From the NCBI GenBank assembly GCA_951406725.2, contig OX597814.1:137640001-137704000 (forward strand): DNA of 64,000 nt, written 5' to 3'. This stretch comes from Octopus vulgaris (lineage: Eukaryota). Of this stretch, positions 12,136-60,654 are shown one piece after another. The notes under the pieces were generated by a model, which was given only the letters and a program-made list of their open reading frames with translations, made no database searches and was not told where the DNA came from. The position numbers were made by a program, and so were the translations under genes. Each line of letters begins with the position of its first letter. Position 1 is the first letter of the stretch.

Positions 12136-13335
12136 TACTCAGAATAAAAGGCAGACTGTATGATGCATGTGTACGAACTGCCATGCTACATGGCAGTGAA
12201 ACATGGGCTGTGACTGCTGAGGACATGCGTAAGCTCGCAAGAAATGAAGCCAGTATGCTCCGATGGATGTGTAATGTCAGTGTTCATAATTGTCAGAGTG
12301 TAAGTACCTTGAGAGAAAAGTTGAACCTAAGAAGCGTCAGTTGTGGTGTGCAAGAGAGACGGCTGCGCTGGTATGGTCATGTGACGAGAATGGCTGAAGA
12401 TAGTTGTGTGCAAAAGTGCTACACCCTAGCAGTTGAGGGAACCTGTGGAAGAGGTAGACCCAGGAAAACCTGGGACGAAGTGGTGAAGCACGACCTTCGA
12501 ACTTTAGGTCTCACCAAGGAAATGACTAGAGACCGAGACCTTATGGAAGTATGCTGTGCGTGAGAAGACCTGGCAAGACTAGTCAGGCCATAACCCGTGG
12601 CCCCTACCTGGGACGTAGTCAGTCCACCTGTGCATACCTTCCTTCTTGTGACACTTGTGAAGACCTGTTGAGGCAAGTGAAAATCAAATCAAAAATCAAA
12701 AAATCAAACAAAATCAAAATAGATGAACATCAATGGAATTTGTATCTTTGTGGTACCAGTGCCGGTGGCACACGAGAAAACCATCCGAACGTGGCCGTAG
12801 CCAGTTTTGCACCGACTGGCCTCCATGCTGTGGGCACGTAACTATCACCATCCGATCGTGGCCGATCGCCAGCCTCATCTGGCTCCTGTGTCGGTGGCAC
12901 ATAAAAAAACACCATCCGAGCGTGGTCGTCTGCTAGCCTTGTCTGGCACCTGTGTCGGTGGCACATAAAAACACCATCCGAGCGTGGCCGTTCGCCAGCC
13001 TCGTCTGGCACCTGTGTCGGTGGCACATAAAAACACCATCCGAGAGTGGCCGTTCGCCAGCCTCGTCTGGCACCTGTGTCAGTGGCACATAAAAACACCA
13101 TCCGAGCGTGGCCGTTCGCCAGCCTCGTCTGGCACCTGTGTCGGTGGCACATAAAATCACCCACTACACTCTCGGAGTGGTTGGCGTTAGGAAGGGCATC
13201 CAGCTGTAGAAACACTGCCAGATCTGACTGGCCTGGTGCAGCCTTCGGGCTCCCCAGACCCCAGTTGAACCGTCCAACCCATGCTAGCATGGAAAGCGGA
13301 CGTTAAATGATGATGATGATGATGATGATGATGAT
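12136..13335 (+). mobile_element. RTE-clade LINE 3' fragment with about 62-bp tandem repeats in the 3' UTR and (GAT)n tail
   Basis: KGRLYDACVRTAMLHGSETW, RLRWYGHV, GRGRPRKTW; five repeat units at about 12848-13157. Confidence 0.93.
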
Positions 13336-23604: not shown

Positions 23605-23869
23605 CTCTTTAGCATAAACAACTGGCCATTTCAGGCCCAAATATTCTACCTGTCCTATGTTCAAACTGGCCAAATGCTGTTTCTCTCATCTACTCTTTAC
23701 TCTCTTTTTACTCTTTTTACTTGTTTCAGTCATTTGACTGTGGCCATGCTGGAGCACCGCCTTTAGTCGAGCAAATTGACCTCGGGACTTATTCTTTGTA
23801 AGCCCAGTACTTATTCTATCAGTCTTTTTTGCCAAACCGCTAAGTGACGGGGATACACAAACACACACT

Positions 23870-23914
<45 letters not shown>

Positions 23915-24214
23915 GACAGGCTTCTTTCAGTTTCCGTCTACCAAATCCACTCACAAGGCATTGGTCGGCCCGGGGCTATAGCAGAAGACACTTGCCCAAG
24001 ATGCCACGCAGTGGGACTGAACCCGGAACCATGTGGTTGGTAAGCAAGCTACTTACCACACAGCCACTCCTGCGCCTACTGTATAATGTTATTCTAAAAA
24101 TAAACAAACACATCATCAAAATGATGTGTTAGCTATGAATTAATGCATGATTAATTCAAAACAATGTGAAGAAATAAGCATTACATTTGACAGATTAATC
24201 TGTATGGTAAAGGG
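23605..24214. mobile_element. piggyBac-like MITE with a full SINE A copy inserted (about 23690-24077, minus)
   Basis: TTAA|ctctttagca ... ggtaaaggg|TTAA ends; internal SINE ends with cagccactcctgcgcct. Confidence 0.7.
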
Positions 24215-24231
24215 TTAATCCAATTATTCAT

Positions 24232-24278
<47 letters not shown>

Positions 24279-24716
24279 CATTCACACATGCACATGCACA
24301 AACACATACAGATGCAGATATATAAAGAAAACAAATTAAACTGTTCCTTTTGACAATATGTATTCTAGTTGTTAGTTGTTCAATCAATAGAACAGCTTGC
24401 TTATTGAATTATTGTTTAAGTGGCTGGGTATTCCTCAGGCACCTGTACTCTTAACATAGTCCTCAATCAGAATCTAAATGACAAAGCTGGCTTTTTACAT
24501 TACAATACAATCCATCCGAGGAACTTCTACTCAGCTTTCATCTACAAAATTCCATTCACAAGGTATTGCAGAGAACTATAGTAGAGGCTGTAGTAGAGAT
24601 ACTTACTCAAGGTGCCATGCATGGGGTCAATCCAGAAACCACAGTGTTGCAAAACAAACTTCTTAACCACATGAAACAAGACCCCTTTCATCAGTTTTCC
24701 TGGGCATTTGGTCTTA

Positions 24717-25132
24717 TTCTCTTTTACTCTGTCTTTTACTTGTTTCAGTCATTTGACTGTGGCCATGCTGGAGCACCACCTTTTTAGTCGAGCAAATCAA
24801 CCCCAGGACTTATTCTTTTGTAAGCCTAGTACTTATTCTATCGGTCTCTTTTGCTGAACCGCTAAGTTACGGGGACATAAACACACCAGCATCGGTTGTC
24901 AAGCGATGTTGGGGGGACAAACACAGACACACAAACACATACACACGCATATATATATACATATATACGACGGGCTTATTTCAGTTTCCGTCTACCAAAT
25001 CCACTCACAAGGCTTTGATCAACCCGAGGCTATAGTAGAAGACACTTGCCCAAGGTGCCACGCAGTGGGACTGAACCCGGAACCATGTGGTTGGTAAGCA
25101 AGCTACTTACCACACAGCCACTCCTATGCCTA
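24717..25132 (-). mobile_element. SINE family A, full length
   Basis: High similarity to 27108-27530; tRNA-like head at the right end. Confidence 0.92.
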
Positions 25133-25919
25133 TAGGTCTTGATAGCCTTCTGTAACTGTTTCAGCAAGTTGCCATAGTGCTTCCCAGTGATGGTCTCACA
25201 AGGTACAGGATTGTAACTAAAATAGGATAGCTTTACTCAGTAATCTTTTAATGTTATATCTTTTTAAGTTTCATCTTTAATTTGTTTCAGTCATTAGACT
25301 GCAGCAATGCTGGGGCATCACCTAAAAGAATTTTTTTGTCAAATGAATCGACCCCCCCCCCCCCATTACTTTTTTTTTTAAGTGTGGTATTTATTCTGTT
25401 GGTCTCTTTTGCCGAACCACTAAGTTACAGTGATGTAAACACACCCACACTGATTGTCAAGCAATGGTGGGGAAACAAACACACACACACATGCACACAC
25501 GCACGCACACACACACACACACACACACACATCATGGGCTTCTATCAGTTTCCATCTACCAAATCCACTCACAAATCTTTGGCCGGCCCAATGTGATAAT
25601 AAAAGACACTTGCACAAGTGTCTTCTACTTTTCATGCATGAAACCTAAAACTACTAACAAGTTACAATATCACACAACATTACAGAAGAGCCTCTTACCC
25701 AGTTGCTTGATGTGCTAGAAATGGCAACCTAATCTTACTGTCTTAATAAAAAAATTAAAAACACCTAGGATAATGAAGTATTGGATACACAACTACAAAA
25801 AAAGACAAGATGGTCCAGGCTGGAATGTTTTTGATCATATGTGTATTTAATCAAGGCTGAAATGGAATTGAACAGCAAAAACAACATGAACCAAGTTAAA
25901 AATAGTTTTAAATGGTGTC

Positions 25920-26299
25920 TCTCTCTCTTTTACTTGTTTCAGTCATTTGACTGCGGCCATGCTGAAGCACCGCCTTTAATCGAGCAAATCGACCCCAGGA
26001 CTTATTCTTTGTAAGCCCAGTACTTATTCTATCGGTCTCTTTTAGCCGAACCGCTAAGTGACGGGGACATAAACACACCAGCATCGGTTGTCAGGCAATG
26101 CTAGGGGGACAAACACACACACATATATATATATACGACGGGCTTCTTTCAGTTTCCGTCTACCAAATCCACTCACAAGGCTTTGGTCGGCCCGAGGCTA
26201 TAGTAGAAGACACTTGCCCAAGGTGCCACGCAGTGGGACTGAACCCGGAACCATGTGGTTGGTAAGCAAGCTACCTACCACACAGCCACTCCTACGCTT
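25920..26299 (-). mobile_element. SINE family A, full length
   Basis: High similarity to other family A copies. Confidence 0.92.
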
Positions 26300-26855
26300 A
26301 TGTCCTGTATGACAAAGAATTATATACCTTCAAATCATCATCATCATAATCGTCATTGTCATTTAATGTCTGCCCTCCATGCTAGCAGAGGTTGGATGGT
26401 TTGACAGGAGCTGGTAAGCCAGAAGACCTCACCAGGCTCTAATTTAGCATGGTTTCTACTGCTGAATGCTCTTCCTAATGCCAAATTCACTCATAAGGCT
26501 TTGGTTGGCCTAGGGCTTTAGAAGGAGACACTTGCCTAAGATGTCTGCAATGGGACTAAACCAGAGACCATGTGGTTGGAAAGCAAGCTTTTAAACCACA
26601 CAGTCACACCCATACTTTCAACAATATAAATAGATTATTAGAAATATTAAATTTCTAAATCTCTCATAGAGATATGTACGGTGGTGGGGCGATAGAATGG
26701 TTGTATACTGTCAATCTAACGTGAACGTGACAGTAGGGGGTTACACCACCACTGTTTAGCCCTAGGAAGTATCGACGCTTTCTGATGGCTTCAACACATT
26801 TTTCCTGTGTCCTTATATACATAGATTATTCTTTACTAATTATATCTACTTTCAG

Positions 26856-27019
26856 CTTTTGAAGTCCCTTGCATTATCTAGTGGATCAGCGGGCCGTAAA
26901 TCTGTTACTGAGGAAAGTTTTGATTCCGCTCAACCCTCTTATATTTTACCATATCGCACACAGGAAAGTAATGTTTGGCAAACTTGCTTAACATATACTA
27001 ATGAAGAATTACCTAACAT
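26856..27019 (+). CDS. Arrestin-domain gene exon (LLKSLALSSGSAGRKSVTEESFDSAQPSYILPYRTQESNVWQTCLTYTNEELPN)
   Basis: ctaat branch-like site, tttcag| acceptor, |GTGAGT donor, 164 nt open, phase 0-2. Confidence 0.85.
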
Positions 27020-27107
27020 GTGAGTTTACTTATTTTTTAATTAACTAATTTCTACTCTTGTTTCCTTTGAAATCCATCAATATGTAGCCAGCTTTTTCTC
27101 ATTTTGT

Positions 27108-27334
27108 ACTCTCTTACTCTTTACTCTTTTACTTGTTAGTCATTTGACTGCGGCCATGCTGGAGCACCGCCTTTAGTCGAGCAAATCGACCCCGGGACTT
27201 ATTCTTTGTAAGCCCAGTACTTATTCTATCGGTCTCTTTTGCCGAACCGCTAAGTGACGGGGACGTAAACACACCAGCATCGGTTGTCAAGCAATACTAG
27301 GGGGTCAAACACAGACACACAAACATATACACAC

Positions 27335-27365
<31 letters not shown>

Positions 27366-27530
27366 CGACAGGCTTCTTTTAGTTTCCGTCTACCAAATCC
27401 ACTCACAAGGCATTGGTCGGCCTGGGGCTATAGCAGAAGACACTTGCCCAAGATGCCATGCAGTGGGACTGAACCCGGAACCATATGGTTGGTAAGCAAG
27501 CTACTTACCACACAGCCACTCCTGCGCCTA
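27108..27530 (-). mobile_element. SINE family A, full length, young
   Basis: Minus strand starts aggcgcaggagtggctgtgtggtaag..gggttcagtccc (pol III A/B boxes); internal (CA)(TA) tract; gagtaaaa-repeat tail. Confidence 0.93.
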
Positions 27531-28479
27531 TTTACTTTATTTGCATATTAGTAGGGGGAAAGAAAAACTAACTGGGAAATTGTGTAAATATGGGTCTGCT
27601 AAGCAGTGGGTTTTGATACATCAAAAATGGGAGCTTAAATAATAAGATAATCATTATTTCATTTTGTTTCTGTGAACTTTACTGAAGCAGGTATACCTAT
27701 ACCTATTAATATTGGCTTCAAATTTTTGGCATAAGACCATCAATTTTGAGAAGGTTCTTATTTTATCTGAAAGGCAAAGTGGTCCTTGGTGCAATTTGAA
27801 CCCAGAATGTAAAGAAGGATGAAATGCCACTCATAATTTTGCTTGGTGTGCTAACGATTATGGTAGGTTACCACCTTCCTGTACCTATTAATATTAAGTT
27901 GGATATGGATAACTGTAAAAAAACCCACATAAACACAAATAAAATATCTCCCCGCTCCAACATGTGCACATTGGTACTCAATTATATTTATAATAATTTA
28001 TATAAATTATAATTTATATTCATTCATAATTATTAATGGAACTTAATATAATCAAACCTCATATTAGTTCAAATATGTATGAGAAATATTTGAATCTGTA
28101 AACAGCTTTTCACTTTAGTTTATCACGGAGATTAAAATTCTCTCTCACTTAAGACAAAAAAAGTGGAAAAGCACCATATTCAGCTTAAAATGCCCTCTAT
28201 TGGACTGATGGATACATAAACTAATTTTGTTCTCAGTTCAATATATCAAAGAGAAGCAAATCTGAACTGATGAAGTAGCTTAGCTTCTCTTATAAGAAAG
28301 CCATTGAAAATATTGACTGGTGGCACATATCAGCTGCCAGGCCATAGAAAATTTATAAGTAGATGCATGAAGCAGTGACTGAGAGTAAACCAAGCTTGAT
28401 TGTAGTTCAAATATGTTTAAAAGAATCTTCTTAAATTTAACATAACTAACACATTGCATTCATTTGTTTTCTCTTACAG

Positions 28480-28543
28480 ACCTCTTGAAATTAAAATACC
28501 TCTAAAAGACTTATCACCCACCACCAGCACTGAGATTATTCAG
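28480..28543 (+). CDS. Arrestin-domain gene exon (IPLEIKIPLKDLSPTTSTEIIQ); probable GC donor
   Basis: ctaac branch point, ttacag| acceptor; 'l.IP....PT....II' Arrestin_C motif; donor CAG|GCAAAC or weaker in-frame TTT|GTAGCA after 28564. Confidence 0.8.
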
Positions 28544-28850
28544 GCAAACAACATTTCTATTTTTGTAGCAAACATTTATGCATACATGAACATCTTCTTG
28601 CACAAGATTAATTGTTGACAGTAGCTTTTTTTTAAATTACATCTTTAGTATATTATAGGTTTCTATGAATAGGTTTCTTTCAGTTTCCATCTACCAAATC
28701 CAATCGTAAGTCAACCCAGCAATGTAGTACAAGATATTCACATACGGTACCACACTGTGGGACTGAGCTTGCAAGTGGTTGGGAAGTAAACTAAATACCA
28801 CAGAGACATGACTGCATATTTATGTACACACACACACACACACACACACA

Positions 28851-28928
<78 letters not shown>

Positions 28929-29015
28929 ACAAAGAATGAACATAAAAAAAAAAAAAACGTGAGGATGTGGTACATGTAAAGTATTAGCAGACGCTCAGGG
29001 AAGGAAAGAAAGGTG

Positions 29016-29053
29016 GTTTTACTACATTTCGAGCAAAGCTCTTCTTCAGAAAC
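29016..29053 (-). ncRNA. Minimal hammerhead-like motif, partly decayed
   Basis: Minus strand GTTT-CTGAAGA-A-GAGC-TTT-GCTC-GAAA-TGTA-GTA|AAAC. Confidence 0.6.
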
Positions 29054-29310
29054 AGAAGACAAAAGAATGTCCAAGAGAAAAGGAAGATAGAAGAAAAAAG
29101 AAATCGCCAACGATTCACATGTGGTTAGACTTTGAAATGACTGGAAGGGAATGGGTGAAGAAAAAGTTCTTTCTAAGACAGGAGAGTGTAAGAGAAGGAG
29201 GTGTGTGTGTAATAGCATGTGTGTGTGTGTGTGTGTATGTGTTGTGTGTGTGGTGTTACACCAACTTGAGTTGAAAATTTTGGGAGCATGCACCACTTAC
29301 TAATGTAGCA

Positions 29311-29462
29311 CACAGTGTGGCTCTGTGATAAGAAGCTTGCTTCCCAGCCACATGGTTCAGGGTTCAGTCCCACTGTGTGGCACCTTGGGTAAGTGTCTTC
29401 TGCTATAGCCTCAGGTTGACCAAAGCCTTGTGATCGGATTTGGTAGACAGAAGATGAAAGAA

Positions 29463-29503
<41 letters not shown>

Positions 29504-29714
29504 TTCTCTTTTCTCTTTTACTTGTTTCAGTCATTTGACTGCGGCCATGCTGGAGCACTGCCTTTAATCGAGCAACTCGACCCTGGGACTTATTCTTTTG
29601 TAAACCCAGTACTTATTCTATCGGTCTCTTTTGCCGAACCGCTATGTAATGGGGACATAAACACACCAGCATCAGTTGTCAAGCAATGCTAGGGGGACAA
29701 ACACAGACACACAA

Positions 29715-29745
<31 letters not shown>

Positions 29746-29917
29746 CATATATACTACGGGCTTCTTTCAGTTTCCGTCTACCAAATCCACTCACAAAGCT
29801 TTGGTTGGCCCAAGGCTATAGTAGAAGACACTTGCCCAAGGTGCCACACAGTGGGACTGAACCCGGAACCTTGTGGTTGGTAAACAAGCTACTTACCACA
29901 CAGCCACTCCTGCGCCA
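29311..29917. mobile_element. Inverted pair of SINE A copies (5' half on plus 29311-29466; full copy on minus 29502-29917)
   Basis: Both match family A in opposite orientations. Confidence 0.88.
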
Positions 29918-29925
29918 TACATATA

Positions 29926-41810: not shown

Positions 41811-41877
<67 letters not shown>

Positions 41878-41878
<1 letters not shown>

Positions 41879-42150
41879 CAGAGATGTACTTGCATAGCAA
41901 GTGACTTGATCTGAGGTTGTATGCTGAAACAAATACAATTGCAGTGTGGAAGGTGTTTATAAGCTATTTAAATACACGCAAAAACCGTTGGATTCACTTC
42001 AATATTTGTTGAAATATTTTCGTCTCTTTGAAACCATGACCTATCAAAGTGACAAAAATATTTTAACAAATTAAATTCAAATGTTGAAGTGAATCCAACG
42101 GTTTTTGTGTTTTTTTAAATAGCTTGTAAACACCTTCCATGCAACAATTG
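41878..42150 (-). repeat. Decayed foldback element of the same family as 59895-60195
   Basis: Shares gagatgtacttgcatagcaagtga.. and gaagtgaatc.aacgg.tttttgtgt segments; inverted arms about 41935-42150. Confidence 0.8.
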
Positions 42151-42166
42151 TGTGTGTGTGTGTGTG

Positions 42167-43035: not shown

Positions 43036-43836
<801 letters not shown>

Positions 43837-46242
43837 AGGCGCAATGGCCTAGTGGTTAGGGCAGCGGACTCGCGGTCGCAGGATCGCGGTTTCATGCTGT
43901 GAGTGTGTGTGTCTGTGTGCGTGTGTGTCTGTGTGCGTGTGTGTAAGGAAGTTTATTAGCGCAACAGAGTAATTTTAAAAAGTATGTAAAAGATAATTTA
44001 TTTTTACAGTATACTTTTGTGTTAGTAAATATATTTTTTCTTGCACACACACACACACACAGACTTGCTATGCGTGGGGTGGTGGATTAAAAATTTAAAT
44101 TACAAAATTTGTTGTTACTTAAATTCCAACAATGGACCACCACATCATCGTTGTTTCATGGAGAGAAAAATATTTTTGTAAATCAGTATATGTCAATAAC
44201 AAAGAAATGAGAAAAATATCTGGTGGTTGTGGAATATGCTAGAAACAACAGTTAAATCTCCTTTAAATCACACACCTTTATGTCTGAAAATTATTTTGAA
44301 ATTATAAATGGAAACAAATTGCAGATTCAAACTGTTTATATTTTAAAACTGATTTAGAAAAATTTTGAAAAAAACTGAAAATTTAGGATTTGTAGGGGGC
44401 AGCAGGGTTAATGACAAATTAAAAATAATTTCAGCATTGTTTTTAAATTGCGTTTCATTTTTGTTTGAAAATAAAGGAAGTGGGGATTGTAATAGTGATC
44501 ACTGATTTCCAAAACTTCTTTTTTTCTGTAATCTTAAAGGTTTCTCCCATCATTTTAAGTATATAGTAAAAAAAAAAAAAAAAGCATTGGCCAAAGTCAG
44601 TACTGAGTGGGAGAGGGGGAATTAAAAAATTGATAAATTTTCAAAACTTTTTTCTTTACTGAAAAGGTGTCTCTCACTATTTTTAAGTGTGTAGCACAAA
44701 GAAAAAAAAAATTGGACAAAATCAGTCCAGAAGTGGAGATAGGGGATTCATAAATTTTCAAAATTTTCTTTCATAAAAAGCTTTCCCCATCATCATTTGC
44801 AAGGGTCACTTGAAAAAAGAATTTGAAAAATCCATATCAAAATGGAAAAAAAATCTAACTTATGTGGTTGTGAGTCTGCCTAAGTAATCTATTGTGAAAA
44901 TTACCAGACAGTGACAGGATACTCAGCTAGTGTAAGTATTTTCTGAGATCCCTATAAATTCCTGGTCCTGAATATGATGTACACTTTTGTAGGCTTTGTC
45001 TTCTGAGGTTATATTTTGTCAGACTTTATGAAGAAAAGCAAGTGTTCTAATTACTGTAATTATCAAACATATTTTTTAAAAATAAAATCTGGAGTCCAAA
45101 CAAGCTGATGGTGGTTTATCAAGAATAATCATTTAGTAAACAAGTCTTCCTCTAATGAGCAGTTATTACAAGGGAGATAATTATTTCTTCATAATTAGAA
45201 ATTTGATTGTGAAATTAAGGAATTACAAGGAAAAAGTCTCAGAGAATCCACATCTTTTACTTATTTCAGTCATTCGATTGTGGTCATGCTGGGGCACCAT
45301 CTTGAAGAATTTTAGCTGAACTCATCAACCCCAGTTCTTTTTTTTTTTTTTGTTAAATCCTGGTACTTATTCTATCAGTCTCTTTTACCAAACTGCTAAG
45401 TTACGGCGACATAAACACACTAAAACCAGTTGTCAAGTGGTGGTGAAGAACAAATACATACACAATGACACACACACAGGCTCACGGATATATATGTGTG
45501 TGTGTGTGTGTGTAAATGGATTAGTGTGTTTGTAGTGAAGGCTGTTATTTGTATCTTCTGGATCAACAAATGCAAAGTAACTGACAGATGTGAGTGTACA
45601 TTGAAGTTACTAAGTCTAGGGGTAAGATGTAAAAGGTCACCACATGTAGTGTACAAATGTAAGGTTCTCACCTCTGAGGTACCAATCATCATGCAGCTAT
45701 AAAGTTATTTGATGTAGAAATAGCACTTCTTGTTCCATGTCAGCTGGTTATATGTAGATAGTCAAACATAAGATGAAACAATGTAATAGCAACATCAAAG
45801 AGAAAAGAATAACATTCACAAATTTATTTGCCAGCAGTGGTTGGTTAAATATTCAGTAGTAATTGACAATAGCAATGATGGCTTGCTGGTAGTTGGCAGT
45901 ATGTGATTTGTGCATTCAGCTGAGAGAGGAAGAAAGGTTGTCCTTTTCCATTCAGCTGATGCTATGCTGTGCAGGAAGCTAATTGCTCTTAGTTGGAGGT
46001 TTGTCAACCAAAGAGAGAGATGGTCTCAGTTATATAAGGTATGGCCCAGAAATAAATAAAACCTAAAACAACAGACTGAGCCTTCCATGACTAGCAAAGG
46101 TCTCTGGAGGTCAGGTGTTTCTCATTAATCACCCAGTATGGAGATAAAACTCAAAGGAATCAGACAATTGTCTGACAAGTAACTAGTGTGTAGATTTGGT
46201 TTCAAATCTCAGTTAGACAGGGCTAAGTGAGCTCCTAATATA

Positions 46243-46664
46243 TACTCTTTACTCTCTTTTACTCTTTTACTTGTTTCAGTCATTTGACTGCTGCCATGCT
46301 GGAGCACCGCCTTTAGTCGACCAAATCGACCCCGGGACTTATTCTTTGTAAGCCCAGTACTTATTCTATCGGTCTCTTTTGCCGAACCGCTAAGTGACGG
46401 GGACGTAAATACACACCAGCATCGGTTGTCAAGCAATGCTAGGGGGACAAACACAGATACACAAGCACACACACACATACATATATATATATACATATAT
46501 ACGACAGGCTTCTTTCAGTTTCCGTCTACCAAATCCACTCACAAGGCATTGGTCGGCCCGGGGCTATAGCAGAAGACACTTGCCCAAGATGCCACGCAGT
46601 GGGATTGAACCCAGAACCATGTGGTTGGTTAGCAAGCTACTTACCACACAGCCACTCCTGCGCC
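46243..46664 (-). mobile_element. SINE family A, full length
   Basis: Near-identical to 27108-27530. Confidence 0.93.
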
Positions 46665-46717
46665 TTATATATATGTGTATATATTTATTAGAAGGTTTGG
46701 AGATGATGTACAGGTAT

Positions 46718-46982
46718 TATATATTAGAAGAAATGAGGTACTCAGAAATTTGGATGGTTTTATATTTGCAGATATTAGTACGTTACATGTTTTTATAAAT
46801 CATATATCATATATTACCGCTTTTGTCCACTCTAGTGGAGTTGTCAAATTTGAAAACTCCACTAGAGTGGACAAAAGCGCTAATATATGATATATGATTT
46901 ATAAAAACATGTAACATACTAATAAATATCTGTAAATATAAAGCCATCCAGATTTCTGAGTACCTCATTTCTTCTAATATAT
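46718..46982. repeat. Near-perfect foldback with arms of about 125 bp
   Basis: Centre about 46848; arms reverse-complementary with few mismatches. Confidence 0.92.
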
Positions 46983-46999
46983 ATATATATATATATATA

Positions 47000-47427
47000 T
47001 GTAACAGGATTAGGTTTGGTAACACTGGAGGGGTGTCCGATCTGATCCCATCACATACAATTTAGGTAGAATAACAGAGACAAAGTCAGGCGGTCTACGA
47101 TCACAGTAAGTGGTGGTTTATTCTCGATTACAAGCAGATACTAGTGCACATGTTCTCTAGTGGGAAACCGACAGCCGAATCCGCAGGACTGATTGCTATG
47201 CTTTCTTGTTGCGAGTCAAACGATTCGTCGGGTTCACTCCCGCTTCGTTGGGGTGAGGTTCTCAGAGTGAAAGCCAAGACACGTCCATCCCCTAGCACCA
47301 CTTATGCCAGAAAGGAAGGTTTAGCGATCCGCGTTTCAGGTTTCAGTTCCTGCACATGCACATGAGGGAAACTTCCAGTGGCCAACTAGAAGTAATCCAA
47401 TTCTGCGCATGTGCACTGAACCTTACA
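47000..47427 (-). mobile_element. Possible solo LTR in a (TA)n tract
   Basis: TGTAA..TTACA termini, AATAAA on minus at about 47117, locally higher GC; no TSD resolved. Confidence 0.35.
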
Positions 47428-47435
47428 CAGTAGCG

Positions 47436-47476
<41 letters not shown>

Positions 47477-48090
47477 GCAACAGGATTCTTTCATTTTCTG
47501 TCTACCAAATCCACTCACAAGGCTTTAGTCAGCCGAAGGCTACAGTAAAAGTCACTTGCCCAAAGTGTCACACAGTCAGACTGACCTCAGAACCCTGGAG
47601 CTGGGAAGCAAACTTCTTGCCACACAACTATACTTGTGCATATTTAATTCCCATTTTGATTTTTTGTCACTTAATACAAAGTTCTTAAAATTCCTAGCCT
47701 ATAGTAACCATTTTGTAAAGCTGGTTAGTAAAAGTAGAATTGTGCCAGTGACAAATATTTTGTTATTTCAAGAAATACATGGGAAGTGAATCTGACAGTT
47801 TTTGTGAGTTAAATGATTGCAAAACTTGCTCTTCAGTGATGAAAATGTTTCACTTTCAACTCATCATTTCAAATCAAGTTACTTGTTTGACAAGTACAAC
47901 ATTAAAAGTTAATGAAGTTTTGCCAAAAACCTGAATGTACAAGTTTCTCTATACAATATAAATTTACCCAAATTTATTAATTTATTTTAGATAACGTGAA
48001 GAGGAAAAGAATATTTTAATCTTTCTCTTTCCCTCTCTAGTCTCTCTCTCTCTCTCCATTATCACTATCCCTCATTTTGCATTGCATATA

Positions 48091-59531: not shown

Positions 59532-59894
59532 GCTTGGTGGTAGAAGATTAAAAATTTAAATTACAAAATATTTTTTGTTGCTTAAATCCCATCAGTCAGA
59601 TCATCATTTCATAAAATGAGGAGAAATACATGTCAGTAACAAAGAAACTAGGAAGGTATCAAGTGGTCATTGGATATGCAAGAAACAACAGCTAGGTCTC
59701 CCTCAAATTGCATACCTTTTCATCTGAAAATTATTTTGAAATTTCAAACAGAAATAAATTGCAGATTTGAGCTGTTTGTATTTGAAAACTAAGATTTAGA
59801 AAAATAAAAAATTTTAGCATTTTTGCACATGGGGATGGAGTTTATGGAAAACTTAAAAAAGATTTCACTATTGTTTTTAGATTACATTTCATTT

Positions 59895-60195
59895 TCTAAG
59901 ATACACACAAAAGCCGTTCAATTCACTTCAACATTCAAGTTTAATTTGTCAAAATATTTTCATCGCTTTAAGACCGCGACCTGTTCACTGACAAAGCACA
60001 GATTTTTGTCAGTGAACAGGTCGCGATCTTAAAGCGACGAAAATATTTTGACAAATTAAACTTGAATGTTGAAGTGAATCGAACGGCTTTTGTGTGTTTC
60101 TTAAATGGCTTACAAACACCTTCCACGCTGTAATTGTTTTCGTTTCAGCACACGATCTCAGATCAAATCACTTGCTATGCAAGTACATCTCCGTA
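59895..60195 (+). mobile_element. Penelope-like foldback insertion with 9-bp TSD
   Basis: Arms 59897-59995 and 60005-60103, unpaired tail to 60195; ATTTCATTT at 59886-59894 and 60196-60204; site empty in Helitron copy 1 (about 44455). Confidence 0.85.
60005..60055 (+). ncRNA. Variant hammerhead ribozyme with G3-C8 core (mirror copy on minus at 59945-59995)
   Basis: TTTGTCA-GTGAACA-G-GTCGC-gatcttaaa-GCGAC-GAAA-ATATTT|TGACAAA. Confidence 0.68.
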
Positions 60196-60654
60196 ATTTC
60201 ATTTACTGTTTGAAAATAAAGGAAGTGGGGATTGTAATGGTGCTTGCCGATTTCCAATTTTATTTTTTTTAACCTTCAAGGTTTCTGCTATCCTTTTTAA
60301 ATACATAGTACAAGAAAAAAAAAACAAAAAAAAAAACAAAGCAAAAGGCTAAAATCGGTACTGAGTGGGGGAGGGATTTGAAAAAATTCATAAACTTTTC
60401 AAAATTAAAAATTTTTTTTACCGAAAAGGTGCCTCCCATTATTTATAAGGGCATAGTACAAAAGAAAGATTGGATAAAATCGGTCCAGAGGTGGTGGGGG
60501 ATTCATAAATTCTCAAAGTCTTTCATCATTTGCAAGGGTGTGGTGGGAAAAAAAGTTGAAAAATGGAGAGAATCCAACTTATGTGGGTGTGCTATTCCAA
60601 AAGTCTGCCAAGGTATTCCATTGTGAAAATTACCTGGCAACGACGGGATAATAA

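Follow-up and report, generated by a model that had tools for sequence, protein, structure and literature searches.

The question raised by a short repeat of the octopus Octopus vulgaris is whether a hammerhead ribozyme can be kept in nature with the two bases of its 3-8 core pair exchanged. The repeat is a 301-bp unit at positions 59895–60195 of a 64,000-nucleotide stretch of contig OX597814.1 (assembly GCA_951406725.2, positions 137,640,001 to 137,704,000; the whole stretch is called the window), and the hammerhead-like segment within it reads GUGAACA in place of CUGANGA. The unit is the pseudo-long terminal repeat (pLTR) end of a Penelope-like retroelement together with an inverted truncated copy and, judging from sequence comparison, the motif is the minimal type I hammerhead of its family, with a G3-C8 pair that is likely selected and a cleavage that is likely slow and confined to situations in which two copies pair (probability roughly 0.7).

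The motif and its 3-8 pair

Two features carry the argument:

60005–60055, + strand: minimal type I hammerhead motif (direct reading, descriptor parse, RNAfold and comparison)
60012–60019, + strand: variant core GUGAACA (60012–60018; G3 = 60012, C8 = 60017) followed by an unpaired G

The initial annotation had described type I stems, a palindromic stem III, a UUU site and the core GUGAACA in this segment, and all of these read as it said. Stem I (7 bp) pairs TTTGTCA (60005–60011) with TGACAAA (60049–60055), stem II pairs GTCGC (60020–60024) with GCGAC (60034–60038), and GAA (60039–60041) is followed by the palindromic stem III AATATT (60042–60047) and U17 (60048), directly after which the cut is predicted. 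The stems and core of that description stand, and the one thing it omitted is that a G at 60019 stands unpaired between A9 and G10.1. Both the parse and the comparison with homologues return a three-way junction in which stems I and II are joined by a short, palindromic stem III, with U4, G5, A6, A9, G12, A13, A14, the A15.1-U16.1 pair and H17 all in place; the core is not a literal CUGANGA. RNAfold of 60005–60055 forms stems I and II (z = -2.86; 3 of 200 shuffles were equally stable) and predicts no stem III for this monomer. Standard searches do miss the motif, as had been anticipated: none of the 81 matches (E ≤ 1) in an Rfam scan of the 64-kb window is a hammerhead. The open reading frame (ORF) of the parent element starts 57 nt past the predicted cut, at the base that corresponds to window position 60105; the motif thus lies in the 5' untranslated region (UTR) and is therefore free of coding constraint in that frame.

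The genome measures 2.8 Gb, and a family in it that is related to the one described here has a 100 % match over 96 residues to a database protein labelled Octopus vulgaris. The family to which the unit belongs, family A, is large. Its 201-bp sense arm has 985 genomic candidates (the 40 that were scored are 96–100 % identical), and the motif is not a chance occurrence because an exact 18-mer containing the core has 6,616 genomic matches (3,359 + 3,257) and the reversed control has none. Among 114 de-duplicated family A rows, from loci that were not fetched by the core pattern, U17 is present in all and G3 and C8 are kept together in 104, the remaining ten having single or double changes, so the co-conservation that had been proposed as a check is found.

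Two sister families are distinguished by the protein of the parent element. Family B, with 55 % protein identity to A, has a motif of the same layout in the same place before the ORF, though with C3-G8, and 652 copies have the fully canonical core CTGATGA. Family C (approximately 50 % protein identity to A, 59 % to B) has U3-A8; it came from the low ranks of a distant-homologue search, two such searches having given mostly family A, and eight motif matches were found in the 20 loci fetched. A quick tree of 27 rows places the three in one clade, (A,(B,C)), with an SH-aLRT value of 99. The U3-A8 minimal hammerheads of family C are seen at L234:2190-2220 and in L235–L246, and no report of a U3-A8 hammerhead in cephalopods was found in the literature checked. 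Within family B, the older copies have CTGATGA with C17 and the youngest (L132:2565-2598, L126–L154 and L185–L188) are nearly identical to one another and carry A9C with U17; open frames in this family reach 1312 codons.

In a set of 13 chosen representatives (four A, three B and six C), 97.9 % of the 143 cells are paired, compared to 33–50 % in slid controls, and six of the 11 pairs are changed on both sides, with compensatory changes in all three stems; these figures are descriptive and not probabilities, because the rows represent three lineages only and were selected with a descriptor in which pairing is required. Among the 13, the 3-8 pair is G-C in four, C-G in three and U-A in six and is unpaired in none, and U4, G5, A6, G12, A13, A14, A15.1 and U16.1 are invariant in all 13. 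Hence, stem covariation, the second proposed check, is seen, and the claim of a natural core-variant family is upheld, since G3-C8 predominates within family A and both the 3-8 pair and the stems show covariation between families.

A pattern with positions 3 and 8 free and N7 = C gave 94 matches and none in the control: 54 GTGACCA (14 with the family A loop), five CTGACGA, four TTGACAA and 31 others, mostly single-change forms. Most of the 94 belong to an older family, E, which in three of the loci aligned is 70–73 % identical to A downstream and retains G3-C8; N7, loop II, the length of stem III and the outer part of stem I differ, with pairing kept. In the rows examined, the G3-C8 families carry U17, older C3-G8 copies carry C17, and position 17 is never G.

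Whether selection has to be invoked depends on how many independent events these copies represent. G3 and C8 could be two neutral changes that owe their spread to hitch-hiking with a single successful source element, their compensation being luck, and the thousands of near-identical copies do amount to few independent events. Family B shows that a core change can spread, and the test for selection within family A is not significant (shared variants in 0 of 36 structured and 11 of 105 other columns, p = 0.066). However, three related families show three different Watson-Crick 3-8 pairs and no mismatch, and the two successive G3-C8 families, E and A, differ at free positions and not at 3 or 8. 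We therefore regard hitch-hiking as very unlikely, and descent from a hammerhead with selection on the 3-8 pair as highly probable.

Two candidate forms were tried and rejected. For a canonical-core form of family A there were 267 pattern matches, but among the top 100 in the list the family A stem II occurs once; the others belong to a family related to B, family D, which has a C3-G8 core. For an A3-U8 family there were 12 pattern matches and three in the control, and these proved to be mostly decayed G3-C8 copies; identical A3-U8 motifs with a family-C-like stem II at two positions of one contig (G000, C28:17978984 and C28:19759679) may be one duplicated decayed copy. A canonical-core minimal hammerhead shape unrelated to families A–E was also seen, in L106 on the - strand (position 2129 when the locus is reversed), with CTGACGA, 4-bp stems and an ACGT palindrome.

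The carrier element and the insertion

The parent element was traced by walking upstream through longer copies. One of them (L066) has a decayed ORF encoding a reverse transcriptase (RT) and a GIY-YIG endonuclease (EN), followed by the unit. A protein search with the parent ORF yielded 5,196 candidates, and in 27 of 30 protein-selected loci the unit lies approximately 1.1 kb past the ORF, with the whole core present in 25. An open frame of 1025 codons is found in L102 (L102:3968-7045, - strand), and its GIY-YIG domain scores 25.4 bits against a Pfam cut-off of 22.6. The family A ORF has no Pfam RT match, and its RT was identified from motifs, with sub-threshold Pfam RVT_1 matches in homologues. 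In L104 the order is inverted 5' copy, partial-tandem pLTR, ORF and 3' pLTR, the two motifs being 4,261 bp apart.

A single ORF with RT plus a GIY-YIG domain at its C-terminus is the Penelope-like (EN+) arrangement. Partial-tandem pLTRs with inverted 5' copies, target duplications of variable length and an optional tail, and a hammerhead that sits in the pLTR close to where the ORF begins, were all found, and there is little doubt that this is a Penelope-like element (PLE). RT motifs A and B are 133–135 residues apart in families A, B and C (L102, L185 and L237), with the endonuclease C-terminal. An insertion between these motifs has been described mainly for elements with an N-terminal EN and for telomerase. 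The parent protein has 311 homologues, and the carrier may be an undescribed PLE clade with a long RT-fingers insertion and a C-terminal endonuclease. Among 12 loci with diverged A-like ORFs, ten are without the motif, most of them interrupted, and a metagenome scan gave one weak locus. The upstream region of L009 was rejected as an ORF end, having proved to be a nest of other repeats; in an older family-A-like copy, L249, an LTR-retrotransposon-like insertion (gag/protease-like by eye) lies approximately 1.1 kb past the ORF end.

The remaining features of the window that belong to family A are as follows:

59886–59894, + strand: left target-site duplication, 9 bp, ATTTCATTT (direct repeat)
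59897–59995, - strand: inverted truncated second pLTR copy, or mirror arm (alignment of L001, query 11–109, 96 %)
59945–59995, - strand: hammerhead motif of the inverted arm, core GTGAACA, with one G-U in stem II
59995–60195, + strand: sense arm, the terminal part of the family A pLTR, with putative transcription-start region, hammerhead, ORF start and tail
60105–60195, + strand: first 30 codons of the ORF, ATG at 60105, ended by the insertion border (the frame runs on into the RT ORF in L104)
60139–60195, + strand: optional tail of approximately 60 nt between the two preferred 3' ends of copies (from 3'-end clusters)
60196–60204, + strand: right target-site duplication, 9 bp, ATTTCATTT (direct repeat)
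41875–42151, main arm - strand, inverted arm + strand: older decayed insertion of family A, 79–84 % identical

That the mirror arm has the same core and that a 9-bp duplication flanks the unit had been noted correctly from the sequence. So had a decayed relative, placed at 41878–42150, the core of which is no longer intact (23.8 bits against 61.3 bits). The view of the unit as a mobile foldback element did not survive. Under that view the 301 bp would be a foldback DNA element, similar to a miniature inverted-repeat transposable element, and the hammerhead shape would be incidental; the long inverted repeat and the 9-bp duplication at this locus are in keeping with it. However, among 30 family A loci the inverted arm is missing or varies in length, and there are no fixed, shared terminal inverted repeats; the arms are not terminal, as the sense arm reaches 90 nt further; and the sequence is the 3' end of the RT + GIY-YIG element in the 27 loci mentioned above. 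We give the foldback explanation practically no credence and regard the unit as a short retro-insertion, because the layout of its parent matches that described for Penelope-like elements (PMC8557442), whose insertions typically carry an inverted, 5'-truncated copy like the mirror arm.

Border repeats of at least 9 bp occur at 16 of 30 family loci (12 of them not TA runs), compared to 32 of 870 mismatched flank pairs (three not TA runs). Five tandem units of approximately 215 bp are present in L003 (L003:1501-2644), the sole such locus among the 30, and L028 (L028:1501-2054) has three 64-bp sub-repeats, each holding a partial motif. In the copy at 59895–60195 the arms are approximately 96 % complementary across 99 nt, and a read-through RNA of the whole unit is predicted to form a single long hairpin (-167.5 kcal/mol) in which both hammerhead motifs are buried. 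This copy is itself predicted to be silent, because the inverted arm would sequester the motif.

Elsewhere in the window, a third and weak relative, at 47783–47898, matches the downstream portion of the unit at 68 % over 122 nt. A SINE-like repeat, many copies of which are split by microsatellites, and 62-bp tandem arrays occupy parts of 23700–29920, 46240–47640, 12780–13220 and 43290–43610; both are, we assume, common octopus repeats.

Copy ends, proposed life cycle and cleavage

The ends of 165 distinct copies were mapped, in a sample biased to copies that hold the core. At the 5' side, 67 start 15–27 nt before the core and 65 extend past the start of the template. Of the 23 copies whose start is complete, 16 have an extra G in front, at a place where the template reads C or T; this G would fit reverse transcription of a cap. 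The 3' ends fall into two clusters (64 and 95 copies) approximately 60 nt apart, both inside the ORF start.

We propose that the pLTR promoter would start a capped RNA approximately 22 nt before the core, and that the RT of the element, starting at one or the other of two internal sites, would copy this uncut, capped RNA and would produce the inverted arm by template switching. A full-length RNA from a partial tandem would contain two hammerheads 4.3 kb apart, which could join by way of their palindromic stem III; cleavage after U17 would then remove the cap and the tail. The RNA of a solo pLTR, with one hammerhead, would stay uncut and be copied back as many insertions of approximately 200 bp, including that at 59895–60195. 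Cutting is probably slow or protein-assisted, as reported for other minimal motifs, because stem III pairing is weak (-0.2 kcal/mol).

The start of the copies just before the motif could also be read as the end of an intron, as in Drosophila Penelope, since a CTAAC...YAG sequence that could serve as a 3' splice site precedes the motif and a GTAAGT donor is present in a few loci. The donor is absent from the autonomous copies, however, and the short copies retain the AG and gain a G without a shared exon. The intron is thus disfavoured, and we prefer a transcription start before the motif.

Several observations weigh against a ribozyme that is selected and cleaves. Besides the narrow basis of the covariation figures and the non-significant test within family A, none of the 165 copies begins within 2 nt of the predicted cut. 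The duplex of the 6-bp stem III is marginal, and the lowest-energy dimer is a different structure. The youngest family B copies read CTGATGC in 46 of the 53 rows spanning the motif, and this A9C alters the core without compensation although the family has been very active in recent times, so that the element may not need full activity. In two ORF-linked copies, L078 (near 2990) and L099 (near 350), a small deletion between short direct repeats has removed stem I together with the core and one half of stem II. For the anole element, mutants with an inactive ribozyme remain capable of insertion in vitro, and RNA-seq shows no reads that terminate at the cleavage site (PMC11167929).

Part of this would be accommodated if the motif were a descended hammerhead that has kept its fold without useful cleavage and has another job, such as RT recognition, promoter or some other function in the 5' UTR: A9C is fixed in the young family B, integrated copies derive from uncut RNA, the ribozyme is dispensable for insertion in vitro (PMC11167929), and metazoan minimal hammerheads are poor cutters even as dimers (PMC4209133). 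Mere binding, however, does not need the core pattern that is seen, in which the eight positions from U4 to U16.1 listed above do not vary among the 13 representatives, G is absent from position 17 in the rows examined, and compensated change is confined to the 3-8 pair; and G3-C8 has survived approximately 28 % divergence, as the older relative is approximately 72 % identical. A fold kept without cleavage is in our judgement fairly improbable. For the G3-C8 hammerhead as a selected ribozyme, we predict from sequence, with reasonable confidence, that cleavage will be measurable; that it is required for transposition seems doubtful.

A broader claim would be that the octopus clade forms a natural series of working cores, with C3-G8, U3-A8 and the first high-copy natural G3-C8, coupled to a non-C17, in a carrier that may be an undescribed PLE clade, and that a two-copy gate operates, by which tandem transcripts would cut themselves and solo capped transcripts would escape to become thousands of short insertions. 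This is possible, though on the whole we lean against it.

Comparison with known systems

The carrier shares the single RT + GIY-YIG ORF, partial tandems, inverted 5' copies, tail ends inside the ORF start and TA-rich insertion sites with Neptune and Nematis (C-terminal GIY-YIG, CX2-5CxxC linker; PMC8557442) and with the anole Poseidon element PAc (PMC11167929), whose tail is delimited by a pair of RT start sites that lie within the beginning of the ORF. It differs in a tail of approximately 60 nt rather than 30–40, in a microsatellite-rich 3' region of approximately 1.1 kb and, when counted by eye against the Poseidon, Nematis and Neptune rows in the supplement of PMC8557442, in an RT motif A-B spacing about twice as long. 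Non-LTR retrozymes (PMC7229834; bioRxiv 10.64898/2026.07.22.740005) are likewise short, non-autonomous, pLTR-derived hammerhead repeats, and L003 is tandem as they are, but most copies here are solo or inverted and not in tandem arrays.

In its published definition, the minimal Penelope hammerhead reads CUGANGA-H-G...C-GAAA-N-palindrome-NU-H and leaves one base unpaired ahead of stem II (PMC4209133). The octopus motif shares this layout, the unpaired base between 9 and 10.1, G10.1-C11.1, GAAA, the palindromic stem III, NUH and the place in the pLTR, and a Crassostrea example has the same AUUU site. It differs at positions 3 and 8 and in the identity of the unpaired base, which is G here and which the published consensus H excludes, though one listed motif has G. 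Cleavage of dimers through a palindromic stem III has been reviewed (PMC6765202).

No G3-C8 pair is present among the 56 representative motifs of Fig. S3 in PMC4209133, or named in its Results and Discussion. A literature search, which left outside it the papers on Penelope hammerhead dimers (Lunse et al.) and on Terminons (Arkhipova et al. 2017), found no natural G3-C8 hammerhead, and none was met in the consulted parts of PMC10085705, PMC7229834 or the bioRxiv retrozyme preprint. On the sequence evidence, and with comparative support that is unusually good, G3-C8 is a real natural variant of the core, probably one that has gone unreported, although both the ribozyme and the type of element that carries it are known. 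C3-G8 is treated as nearly fixed in natural hammerheads and published search descriptors demand CUGANGA, to judge from the sources consulted; a G3-C8 family beside C3-G8 and U3-A8 sisters is natural evidence that the pair, and not its letters, is selected. By implication, hammerheads have been undercounted, and retroelements considered hammerhead-less merit a new search with the 3-8 pair left free. With G-C, C-G, U-A and A9C forms all occurring naturally, it becomes testable whether Penelope hammerheads must cleave at all.

Natural covariation of 3 and 8 is itself known. U3-A8 is the only variant of this pair among the natural cores of Perreault et al. 2011 in the parts of PMC3088659 consulted, and has been described in Cercyon elements of Schistosoma (PMC4209133); family C shares it. 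From C3-G8, U3-A8 would be reached by two transitions via a wobble pair, whereas G3-C8 would take two transversions. The C3G/G8C swap has been engineered. Compensatory swaps had been stated to restore activity in mutagenesis, and they do so in part: in the anole Poseidon Penelope hammerhead, C3G or G8C kills and C3G/G8C partly restores (PMC11167929). In pairwise mutagenesis, no double mutant of the CUGA region except C3G/G8C was rescued (PMC9901934), with which a review concurs (PMC8495972), and a G3-C8 variant is said, with data not shown, to be better with G17 than with C17 (PMC3884650). The octopus motif has the same swap as these engineered hammerheads, which are partly active in vitro; there it was made in laboratory mutants, whereas here thousands of genomic copies, from two families in succession, carry it naturally.
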